A stretch of DNA of 64,000 nucleotides from a virus: the IMG/VR virus record IMGVR_UViG_3300032286_000719, positions 1-64,000 of that record; one strand, written 5' to 3'. The notes beneath the pieces were generated by a model. That model saw only the letters and a program-made list of their open reading frames with translations, was not told the origin of the DNA and did no database searches. Below are positions 3,424-61,735 of the stretch, in pieces. Made by a program: the position numbers and the translations under genes. The stretch's first letter is position 1. The number at the start of each line of letters is the position of its first letter.

Positions 3424-3987
3424 ATGGCAAACTTACAATTAGATATATTAGTAATCCCTACTTATAGTGTACTTACACTTGGTGTTGCAGATGTTTCTGT
3501 ATATCCTACTAATCCTCCAGTGGTGTCAGCACCTACTATTGAGATTGATATTCCAGGATTTGGAACCAAGATACTACCATTTGTTCCTGATGAAATCAAT
3601 GTATTTACATCGTCTAATTTAGGAATCACAGAACCAGGTTGTAATCAACCACTTCCAGATGGAATATACAGATTGAGATATTCTGTAGCTCCTTCATATT
3701 TATATAATGTAGAGAAGACAATAATACGTGTTGACAAGCTTCAAGAGAAGTTTGACAGTGCGTTTCTTCAATTAAATATGATGGAGTGTGATAGAGCCCT
3801 TAAAACACAATCTAGTGTACAACTAAATACAATTAACTTCTTTATTCAAGGAGCGATTGCAGCAGCTAATAACTGTGCAGAATTTGAATCAAATACATTA
3901 TATGCTCAGGCAGATAATTTGTTAAACAACTTTTTAAGAACCAACTGTGGTTGTTCTGGTAACAACTACTTAATAAACTTTTATTAA
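3424..3987 (+). CDS. Putative tail hub / fibre-docking protein
   Basis: 187 aa with an Ig-like N-half (LPDGIYRLRYSV), a helical C-half and a CGC end; position matches crAss tail hub genes. Confidence 0.5.
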   Translation: MANLQLDILVIPTYSVLTLGVADVSVYPTNPPVVSAPTIEIDIPGFGTKILPFVPDEINVFTSSNLGITEPGCNQPLPDGIYRLRYSVAPSYLYNVEKTIIRVDKLQEKFDSAFLQLNMMECDRALKTQSSVQLNTINFFIQGAIAAANNCAEFESNTLYAQADNLLNNFLRTNCGCSGNNYLINFY

Positions 3988-3989
3988 TT

Positions 3990-4085
3990 ATGGCACAATG
4001 TTCAGGATGTGGAGCTAATGTAGGCTGTGGATGTCAGCTGAAAAATGGAATGTGTGCAGCGTGTGCTGCAAAAGCAAATAAATAA
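3990..4085 (+). CDS. 31-aa Cys-rich microprotein MAQCSGCGANVGCGCQLKNGMCAACAAKANK (not in ORF track)
   Basis: The ATG is 2 nt after the previous stop, the ORF fills the gap exactly, and it has 6 Cys in CxxC/CxC/CxxC spacing. Confidence 0.7.
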   Translation: MAQCSGCGANVGCGCQLKNGMCAACAAKANK

Positions 4086-4095
4086 AATTGTTATT

Positions 4096-5682
4096 ATGTT
4101 ATCACCAAGACTAACCAACTGTCCTGAATGCCCGGACATTTCATCTTTACTTAAAAAAATAGATTGCAAGTTAGCAGAACTTGGTAACAACTTGTACAAC
4201 AATATTTCATATATGTTGAATAAACCTGTACCTGCAGATGACATAACTCAATTTATAGGATATAGAAGAATATTAATGTACAAACGTATTAATCCTAGTT
4301 ATGTACAGGATTATTCTGTAGCTATGATAGCTAGTAGAGTGATACGTCTTACAGTGGGATGTGTAAGTAGATGTAATACACCAGAACCTTGTATAGAGGA
4401 ACGTTGTGATGTAACTATTGTACCAAATCCTACCAGTACTAGTACTAGTACACTTGCACCTATTACAACTACTACTACTACTAGTTCAACCAGTACTACA
4501 ACCAGTACTAGTACCACTTTAGTACCAACCACTACCACTACTAGTTCTAGTAGCACCAGTACAAGCACTAGTACTAGTTCAACAACAACAACATCTACTA
4601 GCAGTAGCAGTACAACAACTACTACAACAACATTTATTCCTCCAGGAGCTGTTCCAATACCAGTTTTACTTGAGTATCAAACAATATCACCAGTAGAAGA
4701 TATTGTTGTATTTAATATTTTAGAAGATACCTGTCTTTTTTTCTATAATCTAGAAACTAGTAATGTTAATTTAGGCTCACTTGTATTTGATATTACAACT
4801 TATTATTATGATGAAGAAACTTCAATGTTATATAATAGTGTTACAAATACTTTTGCTGAAGATGGTTATTATATTTCAGATGCACCTTTATATGTTACTA
4901 ATGGTTTAGTAGAAGTACTTACACAAGAAGATCTTGATGGATTATGTAATTTTACAACAACAACAAGTTCTAGTTCTACTAGCACTTCTACAAGTACCAG
5001 TACGTCTACATCAACAAGTACTTCAACAAGTACAACTACATCTACAACCACAGCTGCACCAACAACCACTACAACTAGTTCTAGCACCAGTACTAGCACG
5101 TCAACTAGTACTAGTAGTAGCACAACAACTACTACAACAACAATACCAACCCTTGCCTGTTCAGGTGTAACGAACGCTGGAGATAATGAAGTTAAGGATA
5201 CTTACATTGAATTAGACCCAAATGGTGGTGTCATTACAATGTTGTTTTTTGTTGGTGGCCAATCTGATAAATTAGAGATATATCATGGATTACCTGAAGA
5301 TGGTGGAACTAATAAGATGGCAACATCGTCTATGAATGCAAACAATAATTATGGTCCTTTTGATAATGTATGGGGAACAAACCCAAACCCAGTTCCAGCA
5401 ACAACTACTGCCTCTAATCAGCTACCCCAATTTATAGGTTCAAATAAAGGAACAATACCACAGCGTAGAACCCAATTTAGTGCTGATACAGGTCTTAATA
5501 TACCTGTTAATGGACTTGGTCAGATGGTGTTCCCTAACCCTAATTACCCAACTGATCCATATCAACAAGTTATATGGTGGAAATATGATTCCAATGATTA
5601 TTTAACTGACTCAACAGTAACAATTAGAGTTACAGGTGGAGGTGGAACAACAGGTTGGTCTTTTTATAGATGGTGTCCATAA
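4096..5682 (+). CDS. Virion protein: helical N-terminal hub-like domain, two mucin-like Thr/Ser linkers and two beta tip domains
   Basis: The likely start is ATG 4096 (MLSPRLTNCPEC) rather than 4045. T/S tracts lie at about 4432-4632 and 4954-5148; the C-terminal beta-sandwich ends WSFYRWCP. Confidence 0.65.
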   Translation: MLSPRLTNCPECPDISSLLKKIDCKLAELGNNLYNNISYMLNKPVPADDITQFIGYRRILMYKRINPSYVQDYSVAMIASRVIRLTVGCVSRCNTPEPCIEERCDVTIVPNPTSTSTSTLAPITTTTTTSSTSTTTSTSTTLVPTTTTTSSSSTSTSTSTSSTTTTSTSSSSTTTTTTTFIPPGAVPIPVLLEYQTISPVEDIVVFNILEDTCLFFYNLETSNVNLGSLVFDITTYYYDEETSMLYNSVTNTFAEDGYYISDAPLYVTNGLVEVLTQEDLDGLCNFTTTTSSSSTSTSTSTSTSTSTSTSTSTTTSTTTAAPTTTTTSSSTSTSTSTSTSSSTTTTTTTIPTLACSGVTNAGDNEVKDTYIELDPNGGVITMLFFVGGQSDKLEIYHGLPEDGGTNKMATSSMNANNNYGPFDNVWGTNPNPVPATTTASNQLPQFIGSNKGTIPQRRTQFSADTGLNIPVNGLGQMVFPNPNYPTDPYQQVIWWKYDSNDYLTDSTVTIRVTGGGGTTGWSFYRWCP

Positions 5683-5736
5683 CCAACAGGGTAATAATAA
5701 AACTAATAATAAATCAAATTTTTAAAATAAAATAAT

Positions 5737-6825
5737 ATGTCAACTTGCTCAAATTGCTATAATGGATGTACAGAGATTGTCTCTGACAGATGTGTAAAAT
5801 ATACAGGAATAGATGTTCCTGTCCTAGGAATCCAAACAGGTGATTCATTATCATTTGTAGAACAAGCTTTAATTACATTCCTTGTATCAACATTAGATGG
5901 TACAGGAATAAAAATAGATCTTGGATCTACAGTGGTATGTAACCTTGTACAACAATATCTACCTACATGTGGAGACTTAACAATTGTAGATATATCAAAA
6001 GCTCTTATACAAGCTGCTTGTGATCTTCAAGTACAAGTGAATGCTATTAATGCTACACTTGCTACATTGAATGCTGATTATACAATTGGATGTTTGACAG
6101 GTGTTACAGCTTCTTCAGATACACATGCTATTGTACAAGCTGTAATTAACAAGTTGTGTCAAGTACAAGTTGATTTAACAGCATTAACTTTAAACTTATC
6201 TACTAATTATTCTAGTAATGGTGCACAGTTAGATGCTTACATAGCTAATTATTTAGCTACAAATTCTCCTACTTCTAATCTTATAAATAATAGAATGGTT
6301 CCTTATGCTGTAGTTGAATACTATGGTCCTGTTGCTGGTAATTTTGATGGAACAGGTAAAGGAACTGGAATTTGGGATAAAATATATCTATGTAATGGAT
6401 TAAATGGTACACCAGATAAAAGAGGAGTGGTAGGAGTAGGTGCTACAAATGGTGCAATGTTAGGAAATACAATGCCTGCACAGACTAATCCATCATTAGG
6501 AAATCCTACATATAATGTAGGTGGACCAATAGTAGGTAGCAATAATGTTGTCTTAGGACCTACACAAATACCTAGTCACACACACACTGCTACAGTTACA
6601 GACCCTGGACATACACATACAGTTACAGGATCGAATGCAAATAATGGTGATCCAGGAACTTTCTTTATTACTGCTGCTACAGAATCTAATGGTAATAGAA
6701 CTGTTGGAACACAAATTCCAAATATTACAGGTATAGGTGTAACTATTGGTCCTACAGGAGGAGGACAAGCACATGCAAACTTTCAACCTGGATTAGGTTG
6801 TTTATATATTCAATACAGACCTTAA
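5737..6825 (+). CDS. Tail fibre protein with tail-collar-like C-terminal domain
   Basis: N-terminal CVKYTG..D.L module and coiled coil, then LCNGLNGTPDKRG...QIPSHTHT...HTHT...HANFQP (collar / His-metal-knot fibre motifs). Confidence 0.7.
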   Translation: MSTCSNCYNGCTEIVSDRCVKYTGIDVPVLGIQTGDSLSFVEQALITFLVSTLDGTGIKIDLGSTVVCNLVQQYLPTCGDLTIVDISKALIQAACDLQVQVNAINATLATLNADYTIGCLTGVTASSDTHAIVQAVINKLCQVQVDLTALTLNLSTNYSSNGAQLDAYIANYLATNSPTSNLINNRMVPYAVVEYYGPVAGNFDGTGKGTGIWDKIYLCNGLNGTPDKRGVVGVGATNGAMLGNTMPAQTNPSLGNPTYNVGGPIVGSNNVVLGPTQIPSHTHTATVTDPGHTHTVTGSNANNGDPGTFFITAATESNGNRTVGTQIPNITGIGVTIGPTGGGQAHANFQPGLGCLYIQYRP

Positions 6826-6837
6826 TAAATCAATAAG

Positions 6838-8082
6838 ATGGCATATCCTTTTTTACCAGTTAATCCTTGCTGTACAGACGTAGTCTTAAATAGTCCTTGT
6901 GGATGTAGTTCTACAATTTCTAATAGTGGTTGTGGACAAAATCCATGTGGAACTAATGTTATTCTATCTAGCAATGTACGTTATGATGGTCCTGTATTGG
7001 ATTGCATTATAGTTGAGCCATGTGATACACTTAATGTAATATTGCAAAAGATTGATGAGATTATATGTAATCTACTTGTTCAGATTAACACATTGAATAT
7101 TCAAGTGGCAAACATCACCACTCAAATAATCAATATTAATAATGAGATAATCAATATTAATACTACATTAGAAGGATGTTGTGGTGCTACAACTACTACT
7201 ACTACTACTAGTTCAACTAGCACTACAACTACCACAACCACTCCAATACCAACTACTACAACTACAAGTTCTAGTTCAACTAGCACTAGCACATCTACTA
7301 GTACGTCTACATCAACTAGCACTTCTACAACAACAAGTTCAAGTACGAGTACAACAACAACTACAACTACAGCTGGACCTACCACTACTACAACAACAAC
7401 AGAATTTTCTGCAGCTTGTACATGTTTAAATTTTAACATAACTCAAGAAGATATAGATGCTGCTACAGGAAATGTTATCCATGGAAATAATATAGTTAGT
7501 ATAAGTGTTGGAAAAGGTGCAGTATGTGGAGGTGGTGATTTTGGTCAGAATGTTACCTCTGCAGGAACAATAGGTATATGTATTGAAACTTCAGAAATAG
7601 GTACAGCTGATATACTTTATTATGTAAACGATATCCCTGTTTTCTACCCAGCTACAACAAGTACATATGACGTGTTATACTCTGCTTGTACAACAAATGG
7701 TGAATGTGTACCTACAACTACTACCACTAGTTCTAGTAGTACAAGTACATCTACGAGTACAAGTACCTCGACTAGTACATCGACCAGTACTACAACTAGC
7801 ACAACTACAATACCTCCAACTACAACAACAACTACCACTGTAATTTATTCAGCAGAATTTTCTATAGGAACTGCAAATAATGCTTTAGCTTGTCTTGAAA
7901 CTGTTGCAGTGATAACGTTATACTCAACTAGTTCTACGTTTGCTTTTGGAAGTTTTGTATACACTGATGCAGGATTAACAACTATATTTGTTGGAGGAAA
8001 TTTATATTATAAAAATATATCAGCAAATAATGTAATCAGAGTGCCTAATTCTGGACAGATTAACTCAACTAGCTCTTGTTAA
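6838..8082 (+). CDS. Cys-rich fibre/decoration protein with coiled coil and two Thr/Ser tracts
   Basis: VRYDGPVLDC..CDTLNVILQKID anchor module, heptad repeat, T/S tracts, and a C-terminal AC...VYTD...GGNLYY tip module. Confidence 0.65.
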   Translation: MAYPFLPVNPCCTDVVLNSPCGCSSTISNSGCGQNPCGTNVILSSNVRYDGPVLDCIIVEPCDTLNVILQKIDEIICNLLVQINTLNIQVANITTQIININNEIININTTLEGCCGATTTTTTTSSTSTTTTTTTPIPTTTTTSSSSTSTSTSTSTSTSTSTSTTTSSSTSTTTTTTTAGPTTTTTTTEFSAACTCLNFNITQEDIDAATGNVIHGNNIVSISVGKGAVCGGGDFGQNVTSAGTIGICIETSEIGTADILYYVNDIPVFYPATTSTYDVLYSACTTNGECVPTTTTTSSSSTSTSTSTSTSTSTSTSTTTSTTTIPPTTTTTTTVIYSAEFSIGTANNALACLETVAVITLYSTSSTFAFGSFVYTDAGLTTIFVGGNLYYKNISANNVIRVPNSGQINSTSSC

Positions 8083-8117
8083 ACTTTTAAATTTAAATTA
8101 TATAATAGCAATATAAT

Positions 8118-8957
8118 ATGGCTGATTGTCCTCAAATAAATAATACAACAATAATAGGAACGAGTGCTGTCTCATATGATAGCACTCCACTTCCTTGTAC
8201 AGATGTAAAAGCATGTGATAATCTTAATACAATCCTTACTAAGTTTGATAATGTTATATGTTCTGCCATAAACAGTGTAAACATCCTTAAAGAAGAGATA
8301 ACAAATATCACTGAGGACTTAATGATGATTACAGAAGAGATAGAGGATATAAATGATCAAATCTTTATATGTTGTCCTATTTGTGATTTTACAATAACTG
8401 CCACTGAATTACCTGTATGTGATTTCACTGCAAGTGCTACTGAATTACCTACATGTAATTTTACAGGAAATGTTAATCAAGTTCCAGATCCTACAACTAC
8501 TACAACTAGTAGTTCTACTTCTACTTCTACTAGTACAAGTACAAGCACGTCTACAAGTACTACTAGTACAAGTACATCTACTTCAACAAGTACTAGCACT
8601 TCGACTAGTACATCAACTTCAACAAGTAGTAGTACTACTACAACAACCACCACCCCTACACCTGGTGAGTTAGGACAGTGTTGGTCATTGACTTGGCAAA
8701 ACGACGAAGAACCACCTTCAACGTTATACGCTCGATATACTAATTCATCAGGCAATGAAGTAGATACACAAATAACTAATCTTCCTAGGACAGTAGGAAC
8801 TTTTGAAACCACAGCATATATCTGTTCATATTACCCTAATGCACCTAACTGTGTAAGTTATGCTGTAAGCCCACCACTTATTGTAACTTGTGACCCATAT
8901 ACTTGGTTTACTCAATTTAATACGTGTACGAACAACTTAAGTTGTCTCCAAACATAA
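8118..8957 (+). CDS. Cys-rich fibre/decoration protein with 12-aa repeats and a Thr/Ser tract
   Basis: Same anchor (VSYDSTPLPC..CDNLNTILTKFD), then CDFTxxATELPx repeats and a T/S tract at about 8492-8660. Confidence 0.65.
   Translation: MADCPQINNTTIIGTSAVSYDSTPLPCTDVKACDNLNTILTKFDNVICSAINSVNILKEEITNITEDLMMITEEIEDINDQIFICCPICDFTITATELPVCDFTASATELPTCNFTGNVNQVPDPTTTTTSSSTSTSTSTSTSTSTSTTSTSTSTSTSTSTSTSTSTSTSSSTTTTTTTPTPGELGQCWSLTWQNDEEPPSTLYARYTNSSGNEVDTQITNLPRTVGTFETTAYICSYYPNAPNCVSYAVSPPLIVTCDPYTWFTQFNTCTNNLSCLQT
8382..8486 (+). repeat. Three tandem 36-nt (12-aa) repeats: CDFTITATELPV / CDFTASATELPT / CNFTGNVNQVP
   Basis: Directly visible in both DNA and protein. Confidence 0.85.
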
Positions 8958-9025
8958 TTAACCTTATTTAGTGGATGTAAAGTTTTATGTTGCAATTTAA
9001 TAATAAAAATAAATAAATAAAAAAT

Positions 9026-10258
9026 ATGATAATAGTAACAACATTAGTTATTCCTCCTGGAGGTGATGTAGGGCCATTTAATCTTTATTCAGATTCAGAT
9101 GGGTACACAGTTCCATTTGCAACGAATGTGTCTGCTGCTGCATTGCAAGCTGGATACAGTTCAACTGTACCTAATAATGCTACAATAATTAGAGTGGTGT
9201 CTACTGGATTATGTACAAACTTTATTGATTTAAATATAAATTTAATTACTACAACAACAACAAGTAGTTCTTCAACAAGCACAAGCACTACTAGCACTAG
9301 TACATCTACTAGTAGTAGTACTACAACAACAACAACAACGTGTTGTGTTGCTCAGAACGTAACAATTGGAATTCAAACTTGGTCGTCTTGTAACTTAAAT
9401 GTTTCTACATATAGTGATGGAACTCCAATTCCTGAAGTACAAGATGATGCTGAATGGGCAGCTTTAACCACAGGTGCTTGGTGCTATTTTAATAACGATC
9501 CTGCACTTGGATGCGTTTATGGTAAATTATATAACTGGTATGCAATGGTTGGTATATGGAATGAAGCCTCAAAAACAAATCCTGCATTGAGAAAACAGCT
9601 TGCTCCAGTAGGGTATCGTGTACCATCTATGAATGGTGATGTTGATACTTTAAGTACTTTTTTAGGTGGTTATACTGTTGCAGGTGGTAAAATGAAAACT
9701 ACAAATGCATCCCCTACTCCTATTTCAGGTGATGGATATTGGTATTCACCAAATGTTGGAGCTACTAATAGTAGTGGATGGTCAGCACTTGCAGGAGGTT
9801 GGAGATCTCATGGTACTGGTAGTTTTGGATTTGAACATTTTGAAGGTAAGTGGTGGACTGATTTGGGTGTTGAGAGTGGTGTTACTGAGAATTTTTCACT
9901 TTTTTATTTACAAGCTTCTTTAAATAAGGAAAATTATTTTAATGGGTTTAAAAGTCAAGGTTCTTCTATTAGAGTATTAGCAGATGACACTGGATTAATT
10001 ATAGGACTAAGGTCAAATACTAGTCTTGATTCAGGAGATGCTTGTCTTGAAGAGTTACTAACTTATTGTTATATTGACAACAATGGAATAGAGGGAAATT
10101 GGTATAGAGTGTACACTAACTCTGCAAGGGACCCATTTGATGGAAATGATAAATTTTGGCATTTACTAGATATAAATGCAGGAATTGAAGTTAGTGCTCA
10201 AATTGATACTGATGGATTTATTACACAACCTGTTACTGTTTGTATTCCACCACCATAA
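9026..10258 (+). CDS. Decoration protein: GPF anchor domain, Thr/Ser linker, Fib_succ_major (FISUMP) domain and tip module
   Basis: VTIGIQTWSSCNLNV...GAWCYFNND...YGKLYNWYA...GGKMK...ATNSSGWSALAGG...SIR is the Fibrobacter succinogenes major-domain signature. Confidence 0.75.
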   Translation: MIIVTTLVIPPGGDVGPFNLYSDSDGYTVPFATNVSAAALQAGYSSTVPNNATIIRVVSTGLCTNFIDLNINLITTTTTSSSSTSTSTTSTSTSTSSSTTTTTTTCCVAQNVTIGIQTWSSCNLNVSTYSDGTPIPEVQDDAEWAALTTGAWCYFNNDPALGCVYGKLYNWYAMVGIWNEASKTNPALRKQLAPVGYRVPSMNGDVDTLSTFLGGYTVAGGKMKTTNASPTPISGDGYWYSPNVGATNSSGWSALAGGWRSHGTGSFGFEHFEGKWWTDLGVESGVTENFSLFYLQASLNKENYFNGFKSQGSSIRVLADDTGLIIGLRSNTSLDSGDACLEELLTYCYIDNNGIEGNWYRVYTNSARDPFDGNDKFWHLLDINAGIEVSAQIDTDGFITQPVTVCIPPP

Positions 10259-10322
10259 ATTAAACTGAATACAATAAGTAAACTATTTATAAATAAAATA
10301 ATAATATAACAAACCAAATAAT

Positions 10323-10925
10323 ATGACAGTATTAATAACATTAACAGTAGCAGGAACAGACTCTGGACCATTTAATCTTTATTCAAATCTTGATGGATAT
10401 ACATCAGCTTTTGAATCAGGAGTGAGTAGAGCAGCTCTTTTAGCAGGATACGCTTCTGCATTAGTTCCTGATTTCACAACTATTGTAAGAGTACAATCTG
10501 TAGGGGATTGTAACAATCATATCGACATACAATTGTATGCTATTAGTACAACAAGTACTAGCACAAGTAGCACAAGTAGTACAACAACTACTAGTACAAC
10601 TGTTGCTAATACATGTTATGAATTTGAAAGTGATCCTTACACCACTACATTTTCAGCTCAATATATAGATTGTAATGGTGTTGTTCAAACAGCTAATGAT
10701 ACATGTTTATCTCCACCTTGTACATATACATTGTGTGGATTTGCTGTATTATCTAGTAGTTTACCTATAAATACTGTAGGAGTTTGTGGAACAACCACTA
10801 CTACAACTACATCTACTCCAACTACCACGACCACTAGTTCTAGTTCTAGTTCAACTACTACAAGCACAACTACTATAGTTGGTCCAACAACAACAACAAC
10901 AACTACTCCTGTTACTATTCTTTAA
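10323..10925 (+). CDS. Decoration protein: GPF anchor domain, Thr/Ser linkers and a small YxDCxG domain
   Basis: N-terminus is paralogous to 9026 and 10945 (GPFNLYS...TTIVRVQSVGDC). Confidence 0.7.
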   Translation: MTVLITLTVAGTDSGPFNLYSNLDGYTSAFESGVSRAALLAGYASALVPDFTTIVRVQSVGDCNNHIDIQLYAISTTSTSTSSTSSTTTTSTTVANTCYEFESDPYTTTFSAQYIDCNGVVQTANDTCLSPPCTYTLCGFAVLSSSLPINTVGVCGTTTTTTTSTPTTTTTSSSSSSTTTSTTTIVGPTTTTTTTPVTIL

Positions 10926-10944
10926 TCTTATAATAAATAAAAAC

Positions 10945-11976
10945 ATGACAATATTGATAACATTGACTTTACCACCTGGAGGTGACGCAGGTCCTTTCAA
11001 TCTTTATTCAAACACAGATGGGTATGTTACTCCATTTGCAACAAATATATCAGCTTCAGCTTTAATTGCTGGATATACAGCTACAAACGTGCCTAATGGA
11101 ACCACTACAATAAGAGTGCAGTCTGTAGGTGTATGTACAAACTTTGTTAATGTACAAGTTAATGTACTTCCTACTACAACAACAACTAGTAGTACATCTA
11201 CAAGTAGCACATCTACCACTACAAGTACTAGCACTACAGCTGTTCCAACTACCACTACAACTAGTAGTAGTTCAACAAGCACATCAACAACAAGCACATC
11301 AACATCAACCAGCACCAGTACATCTACAAGTTCAACTACTACTAGTACAACTACAGCAACCCCTACAACAACCACTACCACTACTCCAAGTGAGAATAAC
11401 TTAATTATTAATAATCAACAGTCAAGTGTTATAGTAGAAGGAATAACAGCAGGACCTTGTCCTGTAGCAAGTAGTGTACCTTTTGGTCCAGGAGGTGTTG
11501 ATTATGGATCTATTGGAACTTGTAATTCTGATATTGGTTTGGTATTTTCTGGAGTTTCTCCTGGTGATCATTGTATGTCACTTATTATAAATGGTATAAT
11601 AGAAGATGAGGTAACCTTTAATACAAATGGAACACATACATTTACTTTAACTCCACCAATTGCTAGTAATGATATAGTTGTAATAGTAATTAGAGATGGT
11701 GAATGTTTATCAGCTAGAGAAGGAGTTGTTTCAGCAACATCTGATCCATCAGATCCTTGTTCAATACCAATGACAATCCCTTGTTGGGTAGATGGTAATA
11801 CAGATATTGTCAATGGATTAACTGTATATACAGATATGTCAATGCTACAAGCATATAAATTTGTAGGTGATGGAGATTTTTATCACATAATATTAAATGA
11901 TTTTGGTCAGGATTACAGTACAATAATAACTAATGCTGGACTAATAGATACAGCAGTACCAGGAATATGTTTATAA
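10945..11976 (+). CDS. Decoration protein: GPF anchor domain, Thr/Ser linker and two tip domains
   Basis: The likely start is ATG 10945 (MTILITLTLPPGGDAGPFNLYS); paralogue of the 9026 and 10323 N-termini. Confidence 0.7.
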   Translation: MTILITLTLPPGGDAGPFNLYSNTDGYVTPFATNISASALIAGYTATNVPNGTTTIRVQSVGVCTNFVNVQVNVLPTTTTTSSTSTSSTSTTTSTSTTAVPTTTTTSSSSTSTSTTSTSTSTSTSTSTSSTTTSTTTATPTTTTTTTPSENNLIINNQQSSVIVEGITAGPCPVASSVPFGPGGVDYGSIGTCNSDIGLVFSGVSPGDHCMSLIINGIIEDEVTFNTNGTHTFTLTPPIASNDIVVIVIRDGECLSAREGVVSATSDPSDPCSIPMTIPCWVDGNTDIVNGLTVYTDMSMLQAYKFVGDGDFYHIILNDFGQDYSTIITNAGLIDTAVPGICL

Positions 11977-12017
11977 TAATAATAAAAAAATCATAGTTTG
12001 TTGGTTTTCTGTGATTT

Positions 12018-12156: not shown

Positions 12157-13371
12157 ATGTCTGATTATCAAAGCTTATTAGGTCAATTGCAAGAATTACT
12201 GACACAAAAAAAGAGTAAGAAATTCTATGCTGAAAGACTTGGAATAAGTGAATATGAAGTTAATGAGCTTTTAAAAGAGCTTAGGGAGAAGGACAATTAT
12301 CAAAACGCAGAAGGAAAAAACTATATAGAAGAACGAAAAGTAAATGTTGAAAAGGGTACAATAGAAAGTACAATTGTATCTGATTTTGATCCTAAAGATG
12401 ATCTTGAACTAGCTAAGCTACACAAGATAAACCTAGATAAATACATCATAACCAACTACTGGTCTAAGATGTTACCAAGTGGAAAGTTCACTTCCTCAAT
12501 CTTTTCTAAGAGAAAAGAAGCAAAAGATTACTCACCTGAGGACTTTGCTAAGTTTTTAGAAAACTACAAACCAGCCAATATATTAGTTACCAAAATACCT
12601 AACTTCAAAGATGTGGTAAATGTAGAGATATCTCTATCTGACTACCACTTAGCTAAGAGAACTGTAGATGGTGATAACAGTGTTGAAGCAAGAGCTAAAC
12701 GATATCTTGATGTGGCTCAATCTTTGATTAACAAAGTTGTATCTAATTATCATATAGACACTGTTATATTGCCTATATCGAATGATTTCTTTCACACAGA
12801 TAACTATCAACATCAAACTACAAATGGTACCCCACAAGACACTATAATGGATTATTCAGAAGAATATGAATTAGGGTTTTCTATTCTTGTAGATACAATC
12901 AACATGTTGAGACAGTATGCAAATCAAGTGGTGGTAGTCTTAGTACAGGGTAACCATGATAGAACTAAATCTTTCTACCTAGCACATGCGTTAGATGTAT
13001 TCTTTAAAGACACACATGATGTAGATTTTATAAGAGAACATAGTGTAGTTAAGGGAATCACATTAGGAAATACATTCATTGGTTGGCACCATGGTAACTG
13101 TAAGATAGAAGATCTTCCATTATTGTTTGCAACACATTCTCAATATAGTCAAGCATTTGGTAATGCTAAATACAGAGAGGTGCATACAGGAGATAAACAT
13201 CACTACATGGCTAAAGAAATCAAGGGAGTGAGAATACAACAAATGCCTAGTCTTTCAGGAACTGATAGATGGCACTTAGATAATAACTACGTACATTCAG
13301 TAAGAGCTGCTCTAGCATTAGTATATGATCTTGAGCTTGGTAAGATTGCTGAATTTGAAAGTCGAATATAA
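12157..13371 (+). CDS. Calcineurin-like metallophosphoesterase with N-terminal HTH
   Basis: Motifs SDYH, NDFFH, GNHD, HHG and GDKHH; N-terminal YAERLGISEYEVNELL helix-turn-helix. Confidence 0.8.
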   Translation: MSDYQSLLGQLQELLTQKKSKKFYAERLGISEYEVNELLKELREKDNYQNAEGKNYIEERKVNVEKGTIESTIVSDFDPKDDLELAKLHKINLDKYIITNYWSKMLPSGKFTSSIFSKRKEAKDYSPEDFAKFLENYKPANILVTKIPNFKDVVNVEISLSDYHLAKRTVDGDNSVEARAKRYLDVAQSLINKVVSNYHIDTVILPISNDFFHTDNYQHQTTNGTPQDTIMDYSEEYELGFSILVDTINMLRQYANQVVVVLVQGNHDRTKSFYLAHALDVFFKDTHDVDFIREHSVVKGITLGNTFIGWHHGNCKIEDLPLLFATHSQYSQAFGNAKYREVHTGDKHHYMAKEIKGVRIQQMPSLSGTDRWHLDNNYVHSVRAALALVYDLELGKIAEFESRI

Positions 13372-13373
13372 TT

Positions 13374-14102
13374 ATGGCAACATTAAGAAAATTAGTCAGT
13401 GATGTTAGAAGTGTCCACAAGATACTTTCTACAGATAGTCTCATCACAGATAGAGCTATTGCTTCTGAGATCAGAAACAATGCTCTATTACTTATTAAGA
13501 GAGAAACCAATCTTAGAAAACTTTGGGCAACTGACACATTGTTCACTACAATTCCTTGTTTAGAGATGGTAGAAGTACCTATCTCTGAATGTTGCAACTA
13601 TGTAGATGAATGTAGTATTGCAAGAACTAAGTTTAAACTTCCACGTATATCAGAAGGTAATTACCAATATGTAATACAAGGAGTTTATTCTATTAATGCA
13701 TTAGGTGGTCAAGGAAAGAAGTTAAAAGAGATTACTATAAATAGATACATCAATCTATTGAAGCTTCCTATAATCAAGAAAGAAGAATACTATTGGATTA
13801 CTAATGGTTATTTATATGTGAACAATCCTTTGCTTAAATCAATTAGATTTGTAGCATTGTTTGAAGAAGATGTAGAGAATGAAATCATGTATCCAGAATG
13901 TGGATGTGGTTCTCCTGATTATACAAATGAACAATTATGTATGAACCCATTAGATAAAGAGTTTGCTCTTCCAGGATATCTAGAACAACAGGTGTTACAA
14001 CTTACATCACAAAAACTTCTAACTACTTATTTTAATCTTAAAACAGATATAAGTCAAGAAGGAATAGATGGCCAAGCACCTAATGCAAAACCAACTAATT
14101 AA
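13374..14102 (+). CDS. Tail ring protein
   Basis: 242 aa. The IPCLEMVEV...KLPRI...YYWITNGYLYV...EFALPGYL pattern and position before the IHF-like gene match crAss ring proteins. Confidence 0.6.
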   Translation: MATLRKLVSDVRSVHKILSTDSLITDRAIASEIRNNALLLIKRETNLRKLWATDTLFTTIPCLEMVEVPISECCNYVDECSIARTKFKLPRISEGNYQYVIQGVYSINALGGQGKKLKEITINRYINLLKLPIIKKEEYYWITNGYLYVNNPLLKSIRFVALFEEDVENEIMYPECGCGSPDYTNEQLCMNPLDKEFALPGYLEQQVLQLTSQKLLTTYFNLKTDISQEGIDGQAPNAKPTN

Positions 14103-20976: not shown

Positions 20977-21843
20977 ATGTCAAAAACTATTTCTATAAGA
21001 CTAACGCAATCAGGATCTAATACAGGACCCTTTGATATCTATGACCAATTTGGAAATTTGATAGCTGAAGGTGTGTCTAAGAAAACTCTTGCTAGAGGTG
21101 TGAGTTACATTGTAGACAATAATGTAACAATCATCACTATTAAATCTACTGGTAAATGTAGATCAGAAAAGAGTGTTAATGTTGAAAATATAACAGTATC
21201 GAATTACACAAGTATAAAGTTAGTTCAAACTACAACAGCATGTGTATGGACACACTTACTTAATATAAGAAACTATAACACCTTCTATGGAAACATAGAA
21301 CCTTACATTATTGAATACCCCTTTGCTTATAAGTTCCAGGATGAGATATTACAGAATGTAGTAGACTACACTAAGGCATATGATTATTTTCCTATTTTTG
21401 ATGGTGTGTTTAATAACAACACAAGAATAGAAACAAATGATAAATACTTTAATAAATCTATTCTATATAATGGACAACAGAGTTCTGGTCTCCTTGAGCT
21501 TGTAGCAAAACCATTAAATAATTTACAAGCATATAATCAATACCCTATCTTTAACGCTGATAGTAAAACCATCACATACACTAAGAGTGATAACTTCTAT
21601 CAGTACAATACATTCTGGGCTTTAGAGAAAAGTTCTCAGATTCCATTATTCAATAGAACATGTGAAAGCTTATCAATTGATAAAGTGATTAATCAAGGGA
21701 ATATGGATTATGGAACAAGAAGTTTTAAGAAATCTCCCCTAAGAGCAAAAGAACTTAAAGTGAGACATATATTAGATAACACATCAACAACACATCTAGT
21801 GAGTCAATTTATATTAACTCCTGCACAAATATCTTATAAGTAA
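20977..21843 (+). CDS. GPF anchor domain fused to the C-terminal part of the muzzle/stabilization protein
   Basis: N-terminal GPFDIY...GVS...ITIKSTGKC module, then VWTH...YNTFYG..EPYIIEY...FNKSILYNGQQSSG...LRAK, which continues the stabilization protein pattern. Confidence 0.6.
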   Translation: MSKTISIRLTQSGSNTGPFDIYDQFGNLIAEGVSKKTLARGVSYIVDNNVTIITIKSTGKCRSEKSVNVENITVSNYTSIKLVQTTTACVWTHLLNIRNYNTFYGNIEPYIIEYPFAYKFQDEILQNVVDYTKAYDYFPIFDGVFNNNTRIETNDKYFNKSILYNGQQSSGLLELVAKPLNNLQAYNQYPIFNADSKTITYTKSDNFYQYNTFWALEKSSQIPLFNRTCESLSIDKVINQGNMDYGTRSFKKSPLRAKELKVRHILDNTSTTHLVSQFILTPAQISYK

Positions 21844-51737: not shown

Positions 51738-52127
51738 ATGAGAACAGCTGCAATTTGCCCAACCTGTGCTACGTATGAGAATGCTAAATGCATTATATAC
51801 AATGGCCCAATCCTTACTAATATAAATGTAAATCCTTTAGAGGATCTACCAACTATATTAGCAAAGATAAATACTAACTTAGTACCAAAAACTGGTACCA
51901 CTGCTCCTAGCATCCCTGCTATATATCTAGGACAAACTTATTTAAATACAACCACAAAGCTGCTATACTTTGCTAAGTCTGTAGGTACAGGAGCAACAGA
52001 CTGGAATCTTGTATTAACAGCACCTACTGTCACTCCTCAATTTGCTAACAACTCTGCTGCAGTATTTGCTGGTTTAGTTCCTGGACAAATATATCGTACA
52101 GGAGATCTTCTTAAAATAGTTCATTAA
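51738..52127 (+). CDS. Small fibre/decoration protein
   Basis: Same CxxYxG..L..IL.KI anchor module as the 5737, 6838 and 8118 genes; ends FANNSAAVFAGLVPGQIYRTG. Confidence 0.6.
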   Translation: MRTAAICPTCATYENAKCIIYNGPILTNINVNPLEDLPTILAKINTNLVPKTGTTAPSIPAIYLGQTYLNTTTKLLYFAKSVGTGATDWNLVLTAPTVTPQFANNSAAVFAGLVPGQIYRTGDLLKIVH

Positions 52128-57270: not shown

Positions 57271-58296
57271 ATGGCAATACCATCAAGAGGAATAGGCTGG
57301 AGTACAGAAGATAACCTGTTATGGCAAATCTCTAAGCAATTAGAAAGACTAACGCAAGTTACAGGTAATAGTGTAAGTGGATCTCAAACACTTGCACAAA
57401 CACTTGTTATTGGAAACAATACAGGTGGAACTGATATACTATTAAATAATGATGATGCAATACAGTTAGAGAATAATTCTTCAATTAAAAAAGGAACTTA
57501 TGACTTTGGTCAAAATGGTGGTGTTTCTCGTATATGTGGAGTCGATTATGAGGATATGTGGCAAGGTGGAATTAGACACGTTTTTGATAACAATGGATAT
57601 ATTAGAAATTCAACAAATGGTTTTAATACAGTTCCTAATACCAGTTTTGATGATACTTTAAGATTTAAAGTAGGTTCATTTTGGACTTTAGATGATGGTA
57701 CTACTTACAAATGTATTGACAATAGTACAGGAGCAGCTGTTTGGGAATTATATTCTTCACCACCTAAATATAAAGTGTATACAGCTTTATTAACACAGAG
57801 TGGTTCTAGTAATCCTCAAGATATTAACTCAGGAAATTTAACTGTAGGTGTAACATATTTCATCAATAATAATGTGTTAGGAGATTTTACAAATGTAGGA
57901 GCACCTAATAATGATAATGGTACATATTTTGTGGCAACAGGTACAACTCCAGCTGACTGGGGTATAAATATTAGTGGTGATACACTTACTTTTGATACAG
58001 CAACTCCAATAGTAAGAATATTAGAAAACACTATTGGTGATGTTTGGTTTGTATATTTAGACCTTGGGAATTACGCTTGTTATTGCTCAACGCCTTTATT
58101 TACTGTTAATAAAACAACATTAAATAGTGAGATATTTTATAGTAACACTAACGACCAAATGTGCTCTTTAATTAGTAGCACAGGTGATTTTGACAGCCAA
58201 TCTGTAGTTTTTTCATCTGTAAGAAGTTCAGGGTCAATACAATTTGAAAATAACGCATTGCAAGATACATTTTTTGAAATAAGAGTGTACAACTAA
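57271..58296 (+). CDS. Virion fibre/decoration protein, LLWQISKQL anchor family member 1
   Basis: MAIPSRGIGWSTEDNLLWQISKQLERL N-terminus; C-terminal KYKVYTALLTQSG...LENTIG...EIRVY domain. Confidence 0.65.
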   Translation: MAIPSRGIGWSTEDNLLWQISKQLERLTQVTGNSVSGSQTLAQTLVIGNNTGGTDILLNNDDAIQLENNSSIKKGTYDFGQNGGVSRICGVDYEDMWQGGIRHVFDNNGYIRNSTNGFNTVPNTSFDDTLRFKVGSFWTLDDGTTYKCIDNSTGAAVWELYSSPPKYKVYTALLTQSGSSNPQDINSGNLTVGVTYFINNNVLGDFTNVGAPNNDNGTYFVATGTTPADWGINISGDTLTFDTATPIVRILENTIGDVWFVYLDLGNYACYCSTPLFTVNKTTLNSEIFYSNTNDQMCSLISSTGDFDSQSVVFSSVRSSGSIQFENNALQDTFFEIRVYN

Positions 58297-58314
58297 TAAT
58301 ATATAAAGAAAGAA

Positions 58315-59301
58315 ATGGCTATACCTAGTAGACAAATTGGTTGGAGCACACAATCTAACTTACTATGGCAGATATCTAAACAATTAGAACGTCTGACATG
58401 TGTAACTGCTGGTGGATGTGGCACAACTACTACTACAACTACTACTACTACAGGATGTTTAAATTGTGTAGAAGAACCTGTTGTTATTGGCACACAAACT
58501 TGGGACAAATGTAATTTAAATGTAACTACTTATGCTAATGGAGATCCTATCCCAGAGGTAACAGATCCTGCTGTATGGACTAGTTTAACTACTGGAGCTT
58601 GGTGCTATTATGACAATGACCCTCTAAATGAACCTATATATGGAAAACTCTACAACTGGTATGCATTAACAGATCCAAGAGGATTAGCTCCTGTAGGTAA
58701 AAGTATTCCAACAGATGAAGACTGGACCACTTTAACCACTTTCTTAGGAGGAGAATCAATTGCTGGAGGATCAATGAAAGAGACAGGACTATGTCATTGG
58801 GCAGATCCAAACACAGATGCTACAAACAGTAGTGGTTTTACAGCTCTTGGAGGAGGTTATAGAGACATTGATAGCACATTCTTAGAGTTTAATACCTATG
58901 GTGTATGGTGGGCTTCGACAGAGATAAATTCAGGTGCTTATCTTCGAATTTTATTTTACAGCGATGGTAGTGTAAACAGATCAGGTAGTGATAAAAGGCA
59001 TGGTTTCTCAGTTAGATGCTTAGTAGATAATACAACTACTACTACTACAACATTAAATCCTTTAATTAATACAAATTATACATTTATTAATTGTATAGCA
59101 CCTTGTGGTGGTGGATGTAGAAGACCTCTTTCTTATTATGATGTTTGGATGATACAATCATGTATAGACTCTTGGCCATTGATAGGATGTGCAGTTTGGT
59201 TAGATGAAGCAGGAACAACACCATTTCCTTCAGGTAATTATAATAATAATGACATTAATTGTATTGAAATAACAGATGGTGTGGTAACCAATATTGTTTA
59301 A
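58315..59301 (+). CDS. LLWQISKQL anchor, Thr linker, Fib_succ_major domain and Cys-rich tip
   Basis: VIGTQTWDKCNLNV...YGKLYNWYA...GFSVRC FISUMP signature. Confidence 0.75.
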   Translation: MAIPSRQIGWSTQSNLLWQISKQLERLTCVTAGGCGTTTTTTTTTTGCLNCVEEPVVIGTQTWDKCNLNVTTYANGDPIPEVTDPAVWTSLTTGAWCYYDNDPLNEPIYGKLYNWYALTDPRGLAPVGKSIPTDEDWTTLTTFLGGESIAGGSMKETGLCHWADPNTDATNSSGFTALGGGYRDIDSTFLEFNTYGVWWASTEINSGAYLRILFYSDGSVNRSGSDKRHGFSVRCLVDNTTTTTTTLNPLINTNYTFINCIAPCGGGCRRPLSYYDVWMIQSCIDSWPLIGCAVWLDEAGTTPFPSGNYNNNDINCIEITDGVVTNIV

Positions 59302-59314
59302 AATAAAAATAAAA

Positions 59315-60190
59315 ATGAGTATAGCACCAAGACAAATAGGACAGAGTACAAGAAGTAATCTTCTTTGGCAAATATCTAAACAACTTGAAAGATTGATATG
59401 TGTTAGAGCTGGTGGATGTAATACTACAACTACATCAACAACAACCATAACACCTACCACCACCACTACTACCACTCCTGCTCCAACATCAGAATGGTAT
59501 GAAGTAACTGAGTGTTATACTACAAATGTTATTTATAGTGTTGAGTATCCTGTAGGAACATTTCAATTAAATGATGGTGTTACTTATTATCTTGGTGGTG
59601 ATTGGACAATAACAAATATATTTTATACAGATCCAGGAGGTGCACAATTTGGTTTAAGTAACATATTTCAGATAGGATGTCCAACTACAACCACAACAAC
59701 AACAACAATTACACCATGTATTGAAGTGTCATTTTTAGCTATTACTGATTGTCCTGATTTAGGATATGCTACAGTGGAATACACAGATTGTAATGGAATA
59801 TATCAAACAGGTAATGTTGTTGCTGGAAGTGGAAATTCTTTAAAAGTTTGTACATTAACTGCAGGTATAACTCCTGCATTTACATGTGGAGATGGAGAGA
59901 TTACCTATGGATCAGCTTGTACTACTACAACTACTACTACAGCTGCACCTGTAGTTAATAGCACAAATAAATTTGTTAATTGTGCAGGACCATGTTTTGA
60001 ATCTGAATGTGTACCACTTAATTATTTTAATGTATGGATGACACAAGCATGTATAAATTCATGGCCAACTATTGGTTGTGAAGTATGGTTGGATTCTGAA
60101 GGAACAATACCATTTCCTAGTGGAGCTTATAATAATGGTGAGGGTGGTTGTGTATATATAGAAAATGGCACAATAACTGATATTCCTTAA
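59315..60190 (+). CDS. LLWQISKQL anchor with three small Cys-rich domains separated by Thr linkers
   Basis: The likely start is ATG 59315 (MSIAPRQIGQSTRSNLLWQISKQL); the last domain is paralogous to the C-terminus of 58315. Confidence 0.7.
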   Translation: MSIAPRQIGQSTRSNLLWQISKQLERLICVRAGGCNTTTTSTTTITPTTTTTTTPAPTSEWYEVTECYTTNVIYSVEYPVGTFQLNDGVTYYLGGDWTITNIFYTDPGGAQFGLSNIFQIGCPTTTTTTTTITPCIEVSFLAITDCPDLGYATVEYTDCNGIYQTGNVVAGSGNSLKVCTLTAGITPAFTCGDGEITYGSACTTTTTTTAAPVVNSTNKFVNCAGPCFESECVPLNYFNVWMTQACINSWPTIGCEVWLDSEGTIPFPSGAYNNGEGGCVYIENGTITDIP

Positions 60191-61256: not shown

Positions 61257-61490
61257 ATGGGAAGCATTAATTCAAGACCTTTAAAGGCTTTTGTTAGATT
61301 CGATGGATCTGGCAGAATAGTTGCAGGAAGCTTAATCCTTAGAAAAAATAAGCCCAAGGTGGGTAAGTGGAAAGAAATACAAGCATATGAGTGCTGTTTT
61401 CTTACTACCACTACAACCACTACAGTAGCTCCTACTACTACTAGCACAACAACTGCAAGAGCTACAACAACAACTACAACAACAAGATAA
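61257..61490 (+). CDS. Mini-mucin 1: LKAFVRFDGSGRI domain plus Thr tail
   Basis: 77 aa: a domain of about 45 aa ending ECC, then an almost pure Thr tail. Confidence 0.7.
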   Translation: MGSINSRPLKAFVRFDGSGRIVAGSLILRKNKPKVGKWKEIQAYECCFLTTTTTTTVAPTTTSTTTARATTTTTTTR

Positions 61491-61492
61491 TC

Positions 61493-61735
61493 ATGGCTAG
61501 AAATAACAATAACAAGCTTAAAGCTTTTGTACGTTTTGATGGATCAGGACGTATTATACCAAGTAGTTTAATTGTACAAGCATTTAAACCTGCTGTAGGT
61601 AACTATGTAGAGATAGATGCTAAAGAGTGTTGCAACTATACAACCACTACAACATCAACAACTGCTGCCCCTACTACAACTACTACAACTACTGTAGCAC
61701 CAACCACCACTAGTACGACAACACCAGCTCCTTAA
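61493..61735 (+). CDS. Mini-mucin 2: LKAFVRFDGSGRI domain plus Thr tail
   Basis: 80 aa; paralogue of the previous gene. Confidence 0.7.
   Translation: MARNNNNKLKAFVRFDGSGRIIPSSLIVQAFKPAVGNYVEIDAKECCNYTTTTTSTTAAPTTTTTTTVAPTTTSTTTPAP

Follow-up and report, generated by a model that had tools for sequence, protein, structure and literature searches.

We think it likely that a crAss-like phage carries two gene cassettes encoding modular proteins, arranged like beads on a string, that are diversified by recombination with junctions in their linker tracts. The window, the whole 64,000-nucleotide stretch of DNA analyzed here, covers the initial 64 kb of this phage's genome, which is complete at 112.8 kb and comes from freshwater metagenomes. 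Sequence data throughout are short-read metagenome assemblies, and all genes whose start and end coordinates we give lie on the + strand.

Genomic setting

Cassette 1 (4.0-12.0 kb) follows a conserved structural gene (3424..3987; PHROG 31752) and lies beside a context gene for an SbcD/Mre11-like exonuclease (12157-13371). Adjoining it are the genes for both tail ring proteins, R1 and R2, of a Crassvirales-type virion, namely crAss tail ring protein 2 (13374-14102; PF25702, E 3e-17) and crAss tail ring protein 1 (14585-15559; PF24228, E 5e-12), each match being above cut-off. Consecutive giant ORFs of 1801, 1620, 1199, 909, 4564 and 1611 aa have sizes like those of muzzle, cargo and virion-RNAP genes; the 1801-aa ORF matches PHROG 37948 (E 9e-106) and a "structural protein" of phage csAssE-Sib, and family searches with the remaining five gave no match. 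The phage also encodes a RecA. A PF00078 search of the complete 112.8 kb genome for reverse transcriptase returned zero matches while its controls were positive, and the route of diversification is therefore independent of a diversity-generating retroelement (DGR), as the sequence-only reading of this DNA had proposed.

Architecture of the two cassettes

The first gene of cassette 1, ORF 4045..5682, encodes an N-terminal anchor (A_4045, 4045-4428), a Thr/Ser tract (4429-4635), tip t30 (4636-4950), a second tract (4951-5145) and tip t44 (5146-5679). ORF 6838..8082 begins with an A_CC anchor (6838-7185), in which a Cys-rich motif precedes a heptad-like Ile/Asn-rich stretch with CC at the end, and continues with a composite tract (7186-7404), tip t8 (7405-7710), another tract (7711-7842) and terminal tip t7 (7843-8079), while ORF 8118..8957 comprises a second A_CC anchor (8118-8489), a tract (8490-8660) and tip t45 (8661-8954). 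Genes with a GPF anchor follow: ORF 9026..10258 (anchor 9026-9244, tract 9245-9343, FISUMP domain 9344-9985 and, joined to FISUMP without a tract, a terminal t7-like domain, 10010-10243), ORF 10323..10925 (anchor 10323-10541, tract 10542-10604, YxDCxG tip t12 10605-10787 and a tract, 10788-10910, after which the protein terminates) and ORF 10945..11976 (anchor 10945-11169, tract 11170-11391 and tip t31 11392-11973, the last part of which, 11719-11958, is t7-like). We note that tractless domain junctions exist, in 9026 between FISUMP and the t7-like domain and in 10945. ORF 5737..6825 is a constant, tail-fibre-like gene with no tract, found in all 42 cassettes compared with a fixed architecture and a diverging sequence (median 56% aa identity). 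A "collar" tip had been proposed for it; support for it comes from the tail-fibre PHROGs 8763 and 8469 only, and a Pfam search gave zero families at E <= 0.1.

Cassette 2 (57.3-61.7 kb) draws on the same tip pool. Its LLWQ block (57271..60190) holds three LLWQ-anchored genes: 57271 consists of anchor and body without a tract; 58315 of anchor, T-tract, FISUMP, T-tract and a C-terminal tip; and 59315 of anchor, tracts, a t13-like YxDCxG tip and, at the C-terminus, the tip that 58315 has there. In relatives, LLWQ genes carry other tips or no tip. The LKAF pair (61257..61735) comprises two tipless genes, each ending in a Thr tract, and the LKAF anchor bears t7-like or t55-like tips in relatives. 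The sole match of ORF 60224 is to PHROG 4417 (function unknown), and it has no Pfam family. Two anchor carriers lie elsewhere in the window. ORF 20977..21843 joins a GPF domain (residues 4-63) directly, with no tract, to a structural domain that is conserved and gives a match to PHROG 15100 at the latter's C-terminus, and ORF 51738..52127 encodes a small tractless protein with an A_CC-like N-terminus (PHROG 25268, tail protein).

Thr/Ser tracts occur in 13 ORFs of the window, all on the + strand, with nine tracts falling within 4045-11976, and their linker units follow the grammar P-T5-S3/4-(TS)n-T3-S-T3-x-x-P-T7. The idea that anchors are joined to tips through such tracts does not extend to 5737, 20977, 51738 and 57271, which are tractless.

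Anchor families

Reuse of a few N-terminal anchors had been suggested from the letters of the window, and pairwise protein comparisons of the N-terminal modules, made with the tracts masked, recovered four real families (A_CC, GPF, LLWQ and LKAF), with a fifth on ORF 4045. In these comparisons the GPF module is common to 9026, 10323 and 10945 (E 1e-15 to 1e-21) and extends to 20977 (E 4e-7; GPF profile E 3e-9), and the A_CC modules of 6838 and 8118 match at E 2e-11; the A_CC profile also matches residues 14-46 of 51738 (E 7e-5). The LLWQ anchors of 57271, 58315 and 59315 are 70-84% identical, and the LKAF anchors of 61257 and 61493 match at E 2e-16. ORF 5737, which had been counted as a member of the CxxYxG (A_CC) family, is not confirmed as one, with no BLASTP or HMM match to it and an hhalign probability of 8% (E 0.004).

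The GPF anchor is found in 1,780 representative protein clusters. Among the best 150 of these 1,780 the anchor is N-terminal, a tract is present in 137 (91%), and the tract begins at residue 65-79 in 133. The predicted structure of this anchor (pLDDT 92.6), a candidate FN3/Ig-like sandwich of seven strands, has its best structural matches among FN3 and glycosidase accessory domains (64-70 residues aligned, rmsd 2.1-2.8, Z 5.0-6.0), below the Z of 8 from which trust is advised. A search of the anchors against the solved crAss001 chains found no sequence match.

Tips are shared across anchors and turn over rapidly

The same tip had been said to occur on different anchors, and this proves to be so within the window. 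The FISUMP domain of 9026, on a GPF anchor, is PF09603 (TIGR02145; Pfam score 88.1 bits against a gathering cut-off of 33.9), and residues 51-238 of 58315, on an LLWQ anchor, are 46% identical to it and match the t9 profile at 4e-88. The "VYTD..YY" tip (t7), at the C-terminus of 6838, recurs in 10945 (t7 profile, 6e-9) and 9026 (2e-7), and YxDCxG modules, Cys-bracketed and 60-70 aa long, are confirmed in 10323 and 59315. Twenty tip representatives scanned against Pfam gave nothing besides FISUMP, and the structure predicted for t7 is a small alpha/beta domain; for the tips scanned, these results do not bear out a reading of the C-terminal modules as beta-helix depolymerases or tailspikes.

With gene 3424..3987 as the upstream syntenic marker for locus recovery, we confirmed 175 relatives in IMG/VR and retained 80 as loci, 41 of which span the cassette (flanking-gene gap 3.5-9.3 kb). 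Among these 41 close relatives the order of anchors is constant, and the A_4045 anchor is kept in 42/42 cassettes (median 85% aa identity), where it has 18 different first neighbours; the second A_CC slot (A_CC2) has 22. Anchor-tip pairings are accordingly not fixed: 35 of 42 cassette architectures are distinct and, of the 34 tip families that recur, 18 are found with at least two types of anchor. Tips t7 and t9 each occur with every anchor class that was scored in cassette 1, four in all (A_4045, A_CC1, A_CC2 and GPF). Where flanks are 97-99.5% identical, the Jaccard index of tip families is 0.43, and half of the tip repertoire has turned over once the flanking gene has diverged by 0.5-3%.

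Another conceivable source of these combinations is the single genome, in which duplication together with unequal crossing-over from tract to tract would generate them, with no exchange between phages. Tandem tips of the same family do occur in one ORF (t4~t4, t8~t8, t7~t7, t9~t9, t11~t11, t21~t21), and GPF genes stand in tandem, one to three of them. However, the tandem copies are only 32-59% identical and each is nearer to copies in other genomes (69-100%), an age that leaves no sign of recent unequal crossing-over; the FISUMP copies of the window are likewise just 46% identical, and different architectures occur in one sample (L033/L034, L049/L074). We consider an origin within each genome improbable.

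It is less probable still that the shuffling is an artefact of short-read assemblers mis-joining strains at low-complexity tracts. Some observations fit such mis-joining: short contigs with an end close to the cassette are numerous in the family, breaks in the Logan unitigs fall at 7175-7293, 8995-9029 and 11961-11998, and the cross-tract "joints" in the Logan comparison have short sides. Nevertheless, the same 5.2-9.5 kb cassette recurs at 99.8-100% identity in four groups of independent metagenomes, which makes random chimeras unlikely, and a second assembler (Logan contigs from the source run) reproduces the junctions of the window with 0 differences. Exact matches between non-allelic tracts (median 10 nt, maximum 23 nt) are also shorter than usual k-mer sizes.

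Left junctions of transfers lie in or at the tracts

We found six recent non-allelic transfers, at 86-93% DNA identity. That the transferred tips are not 100% identical points to divergence after transfer and counts further against an assembly artefact. In 6/6 the left junction falls within or at a tract in each of the two partners, while right-hand junctions are often in AT-rich intergenic spacers or the next anchor. The tract and t7 tip of 6838, for example, share 98.7% aa identity with the C-terminal end of the 4045 homologue in the relative L009, and residue-level alignment of this transfer shows a composite tract. Ends of HSPs with 90%+ identity lie in or <=15 nt from a tract in 52% of cases against 16% expected, and homology ends in allelic comparisons do not place the crossover, because they are confounded with domain boundaries.

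At the DNA level, codon identity between non-allelic tracts (30 tract pairs) is 0.36, as in the synonymous-shuffle null (0.36), and the longest exact DNA match is 23 nt, with a median of 10 nt. There is thus little classical homology in tract DNA, and joints driven by homology at conserved DNA repeats are not supported by these pairs; it is as protein that the tracts are conserved, rather than as DNA repeats. Of the suggestion that tracts act as recombination joints, the position of the junctions holds, with the qualification that the tracts are not recombination sequences at the level of DNA. We note that, whatever the register, the periodic A-C/G-N pattern leaves tracts about 75% identical and supplies microhomology in frame. 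The DNA of the tract may promote crossover, or selection may simply retain crossovers located where the linker tolerates any register.

A stronger form of the latter would make the tracts passive linkers, flexible or glycosylated and mucin-like, that mark joints without causing them. Recombination would then occur anywhere, mostly allelically in anchors or flanks, and junctions would seem to be located in tracts because chimeras that cut folded domains are lost. The codon identity and short exact matches fit such an account, as do the tractless domain junctions, the right-hand boundaries in spacers or anchors, and the anchors themselves, whose 62-85% protein identity would provide long DNA homology for allelic exchange. 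Allelic exchange cannot, however, yield the six non-allelic transfers, every one of which begins in a tract; composite tracts resemble the scars of joins, and the A-C/G-N periodicity still offers microhomology in any register. We view passive linkers as a credible but somewhat doubtful explanation.

Discussion

We favor recombination with junctions in the linker tracts and propose that the cassettes encode small fibre or decoration proteins, each with three kinds of part. The first is a conserved N-terminal module, from one of at least five families, that probably inserts into a capsid pocket or the tail hub, by analogy with the head and tail fibres of crAss001; the second, a Thr/Ser linker of one or several units of stereotyped make-up; and the third, one to seven small tips from a population-wide pool (FISUMP, YxDCxG, terminal t7 and many orphans), which would bind ligands and mediate adhesion at the virion surface. 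Novel combinations would arise by recombination among related, co-occurring phages, in which a tip usually brings along the linker unit upstream of it and is spliced into the recipient tract, so leaving a composite tract. Because ACN/AGY codons follow one another in frame throughout the homogeneous tract, crossing over at any of them would yield a functional fusion, which makes the tract analogous to a phase-compatible intron in exon shuffling. The enzymology may be microhomology or homeologous recombination, in which the phage RecA possibly takes part, and selection would then keep products whose domains are intact.

A bolder version, to which we give a little less than an even chance, is that the tract is a dedicated universal adaptor, by which a pool of hundreds of tips, common to a whole lineage of freshwater crAss-like phages, is shown singly or strung together on at least five capsid and tail docking sites, and that the tracts may double as glycosylated stalks, a candidate parallel to the O-glycosylated Ser/Thr-rich virion segments of mycobacteriophages. 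If so, nature would have in this adaptor a plug-and-play scaffold for display, and phages would have a third general way to diversify host range and adhesion, in addition to point mutation or DGRs and the replacement of whole genes.

We rate the system as a form of modular receptor-binding-protein shuffling. The receptor-binding proteins (RBPs) of Klebsiella and E. coli podophages combine an N-terminal anchor with a depolymerase or tailspike at the C-terminus that can be exchanged (PMC6872550, PMC8262889, PMC10408124), and here too the N-terminal module is conserved while the C-terminal module, putatively one of specificity, is exchanged horizontally. In podophages the N-terminal module attaches to the tail, with several RBPs per virion, and our proteins would resemble them in this. 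The tips of our proteins, by contrast, are small (60-300 aa) and mostly orphan, the scanned representatives being Pfam-negative except for FISUMP; up to seven occur per chain; anchors of at least five families draw on a single pool; and the joints are stereotyped Thr/Ser tracts instead of conserved structural linkers. The T-even gp37/gp38 adhesins have hypervariable segments between conserved glycine-rich motifs (PMC3157838), but the gp38 motifs build the folded core of a single domain whose loops are exchanged, whereas in our proteins the unit of exchange is a whole folded domain and the linkers are unstructured, with no DNA identity beyond that due to amino-acid composition.

The collagen-like repeats of Streptococcus thermophilus phage antireceptors reportedly act as recombination sites. 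Such repeats separate domains and also surround VR2 (Duplessis and Moineau 2001, via PMC5601072), and, as far as that account goes, they resemble our tracts in being low-complexity repeats with three-base periodicity between the domains of a host-range protein. As described there, a single gene has one or two variable regions and the repeat is a G-X-Y collagen triple helix, whereas here a multi-gene, multi-anchor library is joined by Thr/Ser tracts.

The crAss001 fibres (head gp21 and gp29; tail gp22) are described as docking via residues 1-26, 1-38 and 1-58, with these N-terminal 26-58 residues buried in a hexon pocket or the tail hub (PMC10172136). Our phage is also crAss-like, with ring proteins 1 and 2 adjoining the cassette, but its anchors have no detected sequence similarity to the solved chains, and the parts of the crAss001 atlas consulted (PMC10172136) are silent on Thr/Ser tracts and on a common pool of tips. 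As with DGRs acting on phage tail fibres, it is the distal, here putatively ligand-binding, part that is diversified, but by swaps of whole domains instead of targeted mutagenesis and with no reverse transcriptase.

A low-complexity linker of a multi-domain protein accepts any in-frame junction, and in exon shuffling and in the Pro/Thr-rich linkers of cellulosomal and glycoside-hydrolase proteins, low-complexity linkers let modules recombine with folds unharmed. The cassettes offer an unusually clear natural example of such protein domain shuffling, one that differs in proceeding within a virus population and on a short time scale.

Results

Thr/Ser tracts are encoded in frame by thirteen ORFs of the window, each on the + strand, and are concentrated at 2.1-12 kb and 58-62 kb. 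All-against-all BLASTP with the tracts masked recovered shared N-terminal modules (anchors) that a sequence-only reading had proposed, namely the GPF module in the ORFs starting at 9026, 10323 and 10945 and, more weakly, 20977, the A_CC module in 6838 and 8118, the LLWQ module in 57271, 58315 and 59315, and the LKAF module in 61257 and 61493. The A_CC profile added ORF 51738 (E 7e-5) but not ORF 5737, which the same reading had assigned to this CxxYxG module; a profile-profile comparison with the N-terminus of 5737 gave a probability of only 8%, and its assignment is therefore unsupported. ORF 4045 has a separate anchor of its own (A_4045). Alignments mixing one full protein with module fragments were dropped in favour of single-domain ones because MAFFT stacked fragments of the tips (the domains carried behind the tracts) on the anchor region; in a single-linkage grouping of the profiles into superfamilies, composite tips linked 27 clusters to one another, so that the figure is not usable as a count of families.

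The proposal that tips recur on different anchors was borne out within the window. The FISUMP tip is recognized by Pfam in 9026 and has a relative, 46% identical, in 58315; the profile of the VYTD..YY terminal tip (t7) matches the C-termini of both 10945 and 9026; and the Cys-bracketed YxDCxG modules are real and numerous. We note that in ORF 57271 the LLWQ anchor is fused directly to the body of the protein with no tract, unlike in the relative L141, where an LLWQ anchor is followed by a Thr tract and then by a body homologous to that of 57271.

We examined how these modules are combined in relatives, taking the upstream structural gene at 3424-3987 as a marker for the cassette at 4.0-12.0 kb (cassette 1). 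This gave 175 confirmed relatives, the best 80 of which (87-99% identical) were kept as loci; 41 of these extend to the exonuclease gene downstream of the cassette, with flank-to-flank distances of 3.5-9.3 kb. Every ORF was cut at its tracts and the resulting 579 pieces were clustered into 73 module clusters. Cassette 1 has a constant skeleton (A_4045, the fibre gene 5737, two successive A_CC genes and then one to three GPF genes), and the content behind the tracts is highly variable. The 42 cassettes, counting that of the window, display 35 distinct architectures, and of 34 tip families found two or more times, 18 occur on more than one anchor type, so that pairings of anchor and tip are clearly not fixed. 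FISUMP and t7 each occur with every one of the four anchor classes scored in cassette 1 (A_4045, A_CC1, A_CC2 and GPF), and an A_CC1 chain holds as many as seven tips. Tip families are shared at 43% between relatives whose flanking gene is 97-99.5% identical and at 23% where it is 93-97% identical, figures that refer to pairs among the relatives, with pairs including the window left out. Differing architectures also occur within one sample (L033 and L034; L049 and L074), which provides an opportunity for exchange.

Tracts do not always lead to a tip: 25 of 82 GPF genes, 9 of 42 A_4045 genes and 8 of 42 A_CC2 genes of cassette 1 end in a bare tract, which either has a use of its own or is an empty socket left by deletion.

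For the cassette at 57.3-61.7 kb (cassette 2), which holds the LLWQ and LKAF genes, the region 55909-57183 was rejected as a marker, its relatives being just 38-74% identical and mostly without LLWQ genes, and four near-complete relatives were searched directly instead. In these four, and in five more distant relatives, the tips on LLWQ and LKAF anchors are different ones or are lacking, and those present belong to families that also occur in cassette 1 (t7, t9 [the FISUMP family], t13, t55 and t57).

Where the joins fall can be asked in two ways. Of the ends of DNA alignments of at least 90% identity between loci, 52% lie inside a tract or no more than 15 nt from one (expected: 16%), and roughly 60% of unique junction sites are close to a tract; both figures are confounded, because where the same anchor carries different tips homology ends at the tract wherever the crossover occurred. 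Six distinct non-allelic transfers, in which the same tip stands behind different upstream modules at 86-93% DNA identity (t22, t7 twice, t27, t13 and t38), are the informative cases: on the left, every one of them begins inside a tract or at most one codon from its edge, and this holds for both partners. On the right they stop in a further tract, where the tip ends, in the short AT-rich spacer that precedes the following gene or within the next anchor. In residue-level alignment, window ORF 6838 and the L009 homologue of 4045 have a complete linker unit and t7 in common, upstream of which unrelated modules end (t8 and t30, respectively), and the composite linker of L009 still contains a stub of t30's own downstream tract. 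Long tracts of two or three units split by P, A, I or G may likewise be scars of joins. Recent unequal crossing-over was considered as a source and rejected, the tandem tips of the same family being old.

Chimeric assembly of short reads could in principle join tips to foreign anchors at low-complexity sequence. However, the same cassette of 5.2-9.5 kb recurs at 99.8-100% identity in four contig groups from different metagenomes, contigs of the source run from an independent assembler agree with the window at its junctions across every tract with 0 differences, exact matches between non-allelic tracts are short (median 10 nt, maximum 23 nt) and transferred tips are 86-93% rather than 100% identical. 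These results make it improbable that the pattern arises mainly from chimeric assembly. Apparent joints across tracts in Logan contigs all had sides of fewer than 35 letters at 90% likeness, which makes them unreliable, and were excluded as evidence, as were sister-sample bins without cover. We also observed that at 11285, within the tract at 11170-11391, 3 nt are missing from a source-run contig with a depth of 10.5 of 25.1, and that sister samples have in-frame differences of 12 nt in the tracts at 9269-9283 and 10843-10847; tract length thus seems to vary by whole codons within populations.

The tracts follow a protein grammar, P-T5-S3/4-(TS)n-T3-S-T3-x-x-P-T7, and the AGY share of their Ser codons is 67%, compared with about 30% outside. 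Across 30 non-allelic pairs of tracts in the window codon identity is 0.36, which is the value of a synonymous-codon shuffle, and the tracts are therefore conserved as protein and not as DNA repeats. Their DNA is about 75% identical, with in-frame microhomologies and no classical homology. The tracts had been put forward as recombination joints that shuffle tips independently of a DGR; the data establish that new joins are found there, and no more than a possible role of tract DNA in promoting crossover. A serious partial rival is that the tract is a passive linker and that selection for intact domains, not tract DNA, places the joins in it; selection of this kind would leave an identical pattern, since a fusion at any in-frame position of the linker is tolerated. 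The facts bearing on mechanism are a RecA-family recombinase gene (70944-71717, minus strand, outside the window; E 4.6e-87), an SbcD-like nuclease gene that adjoins cassette 1, and a search of the genome that found no RecT, ERF or reverse transcriptase.

The library is very large. Among 1.84 billion proteins the GPF anchor profile matched 1,780 representative clusters (1,352 at E <= 1e-10). In the best 150 of these the anchor starts at residue 1-6 in nearly all and at residue 23-24 in two, and a tract is present in 137, starting at residue 65-79 in 133; their 163 tips form 90 clusters, and only 67 of the tips match families of the 42 cassettes. The GPF anchor is modelled with high confidence (pLDDT 92.6); the model is a small beta-sandwich whose FN3-like matches are generic and low-scoring (Z 5-6), and in a library of viral structures it matches five paralogues of 77-939 aa from the marine Virus NIOZ-UU157. 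The t7 tip (7843-8079) is an 80-aa Cys-bracketed terminal domain whose very confident model (pLDDT 97.2) had no clear match among 48,161 solved chains (best Z 3.8), and its fold may be one that no solved structure represents yet. The domain is found again in proteins from Cellulophaga phage phi17:1, NIOZ-UU157 and uncultured viruses; among longer proteins its profile matched only hypothetical proteins, some on phage-sized contigs, with one co-occurrence of FISUMP. Pfam recognized no family besides FISUMP in 20 tip representatives, sequence comparison of the anchors, FISUMP and 5737 with PDB chains gave nothing useful, the GPF and A_CC anchors had no match in isolate phages, and searches of the ESM Atlas returned unnamed viral clusters only.

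The source IMG/VR virus record is a complete genome of 112,819 bp with direct terminal repeats, of which the window is the first 64 kb. All long ORFs of the window are on the + strand, and they include a row of giant genes (1801, 1620, 1199, 909, 4564 and 1611 aa). Genes on the + strand for crAss tail ring protein 2 (13374-14102) and tail ring protein 1 (14585-15559) score above the Pfam cut-off, the 1801-aa ORF has structural proteins as its matches in Cellulophaga phages phi4:1 and phi17:2, Leptolyngbya phage Lbo-JY46 and a gut crAss-like phage, and the runs containing the stretch are freshwater or lake metagenomes; the library is therefore placed within the tail-gene block of a crAss-like phage from fresh water.

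The 1801-aa muzzle-like protein (15568-20973) has short Thr tracts at its end (20266-20328 and 20749-20778), and the gene after it (20977-21843) has a GPF domain at its start; the N-terminus of the former and the C-terminus of the latter both match PHROG 15100 (1783 aa), and the pair looks like a single ancestral gene that was split, with library modules at the break. A 397-aa ORF on the + strand (2139-3332), without a family match, has two terminal Thr tracts (3261-3323) and no tip after them. Within cassette 2, the + strand ORF 60224-61240 is 90-91% identical across four relatives; its sole match is PHROG 4417, of unknown function (E 1e-55), with no Pfam family at E <= 0.01.

Discussion

Distal domains of virion appendages underlie the host range of phages and the adhesion of their particles, and modular exchange of these domains is known, usually in single genes and with poorly defined junctions. 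It is established that podophages of Klebsiella and E. coli combine conserved anchors with C-terminal specificity modules that can be exchanged (PMC6872550, PMC8262889, PMC10408124), exchanges in gp38 of T-even phages are described at conserved motifs (PMC3157838), and antireceptors of S. thermophilus phages have domains separated by collagen-like repeats (PMC5601072). In contrast to these systems, the general junction here is one low-complexity linker grammar, a chain can carry several folded tips, one pool of tips is common to at least five anchor families and two cassettes, and the library is very large. No account of such a system emerged from literature searches on Thr-rich linkers or poly-threonine in the fibres of phages.

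The position and conservation of the N-terminal modules, the GPF domain heading the gene after the muzzle-like protein and the analogy with crAss001 suggest that these modules dock on the virion, and we infer that the tips bind ligands. In crAss001 the attachment segments are residues 1-38 and 1-58 of head fibres gp21 and gp29, respectively, and residues 1-26 of tail fibre gp22 (PMC10172136).

The rules of this library (fixed anchors, a recognizable linker grammar and a very large pool of tips) are legible from sequence, and the turnover of tips can be measured against the divergence of flanking genes. It thus offers a tractable natural system for domain shuffling in a virus population, in which the central question, whether crossover is driven by linker DNA or filtered by selection, is testable. 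The library is also a catalogue of compact orphan domains, t7 among them, and a possible blueprint for engineered phages with exchangeable binding modules. It is relevant, too, to the ecology of abundant and almost unstudied freshwater phages, whose hosts are probably Bacteroidota.

Lastly, we note that the fibre gene at 5737-6825 has an unchanged architecture in all 42 cassettes yet is the most divergent of the conserved genes, with a median amino acid identity of 56%. Homology between the window and L009 (at least 80% identity) breaks off at about 6210 and returns at about 6738, inside this gene, whose divergence looks like a second mode of diversification, one that operates without tracts.
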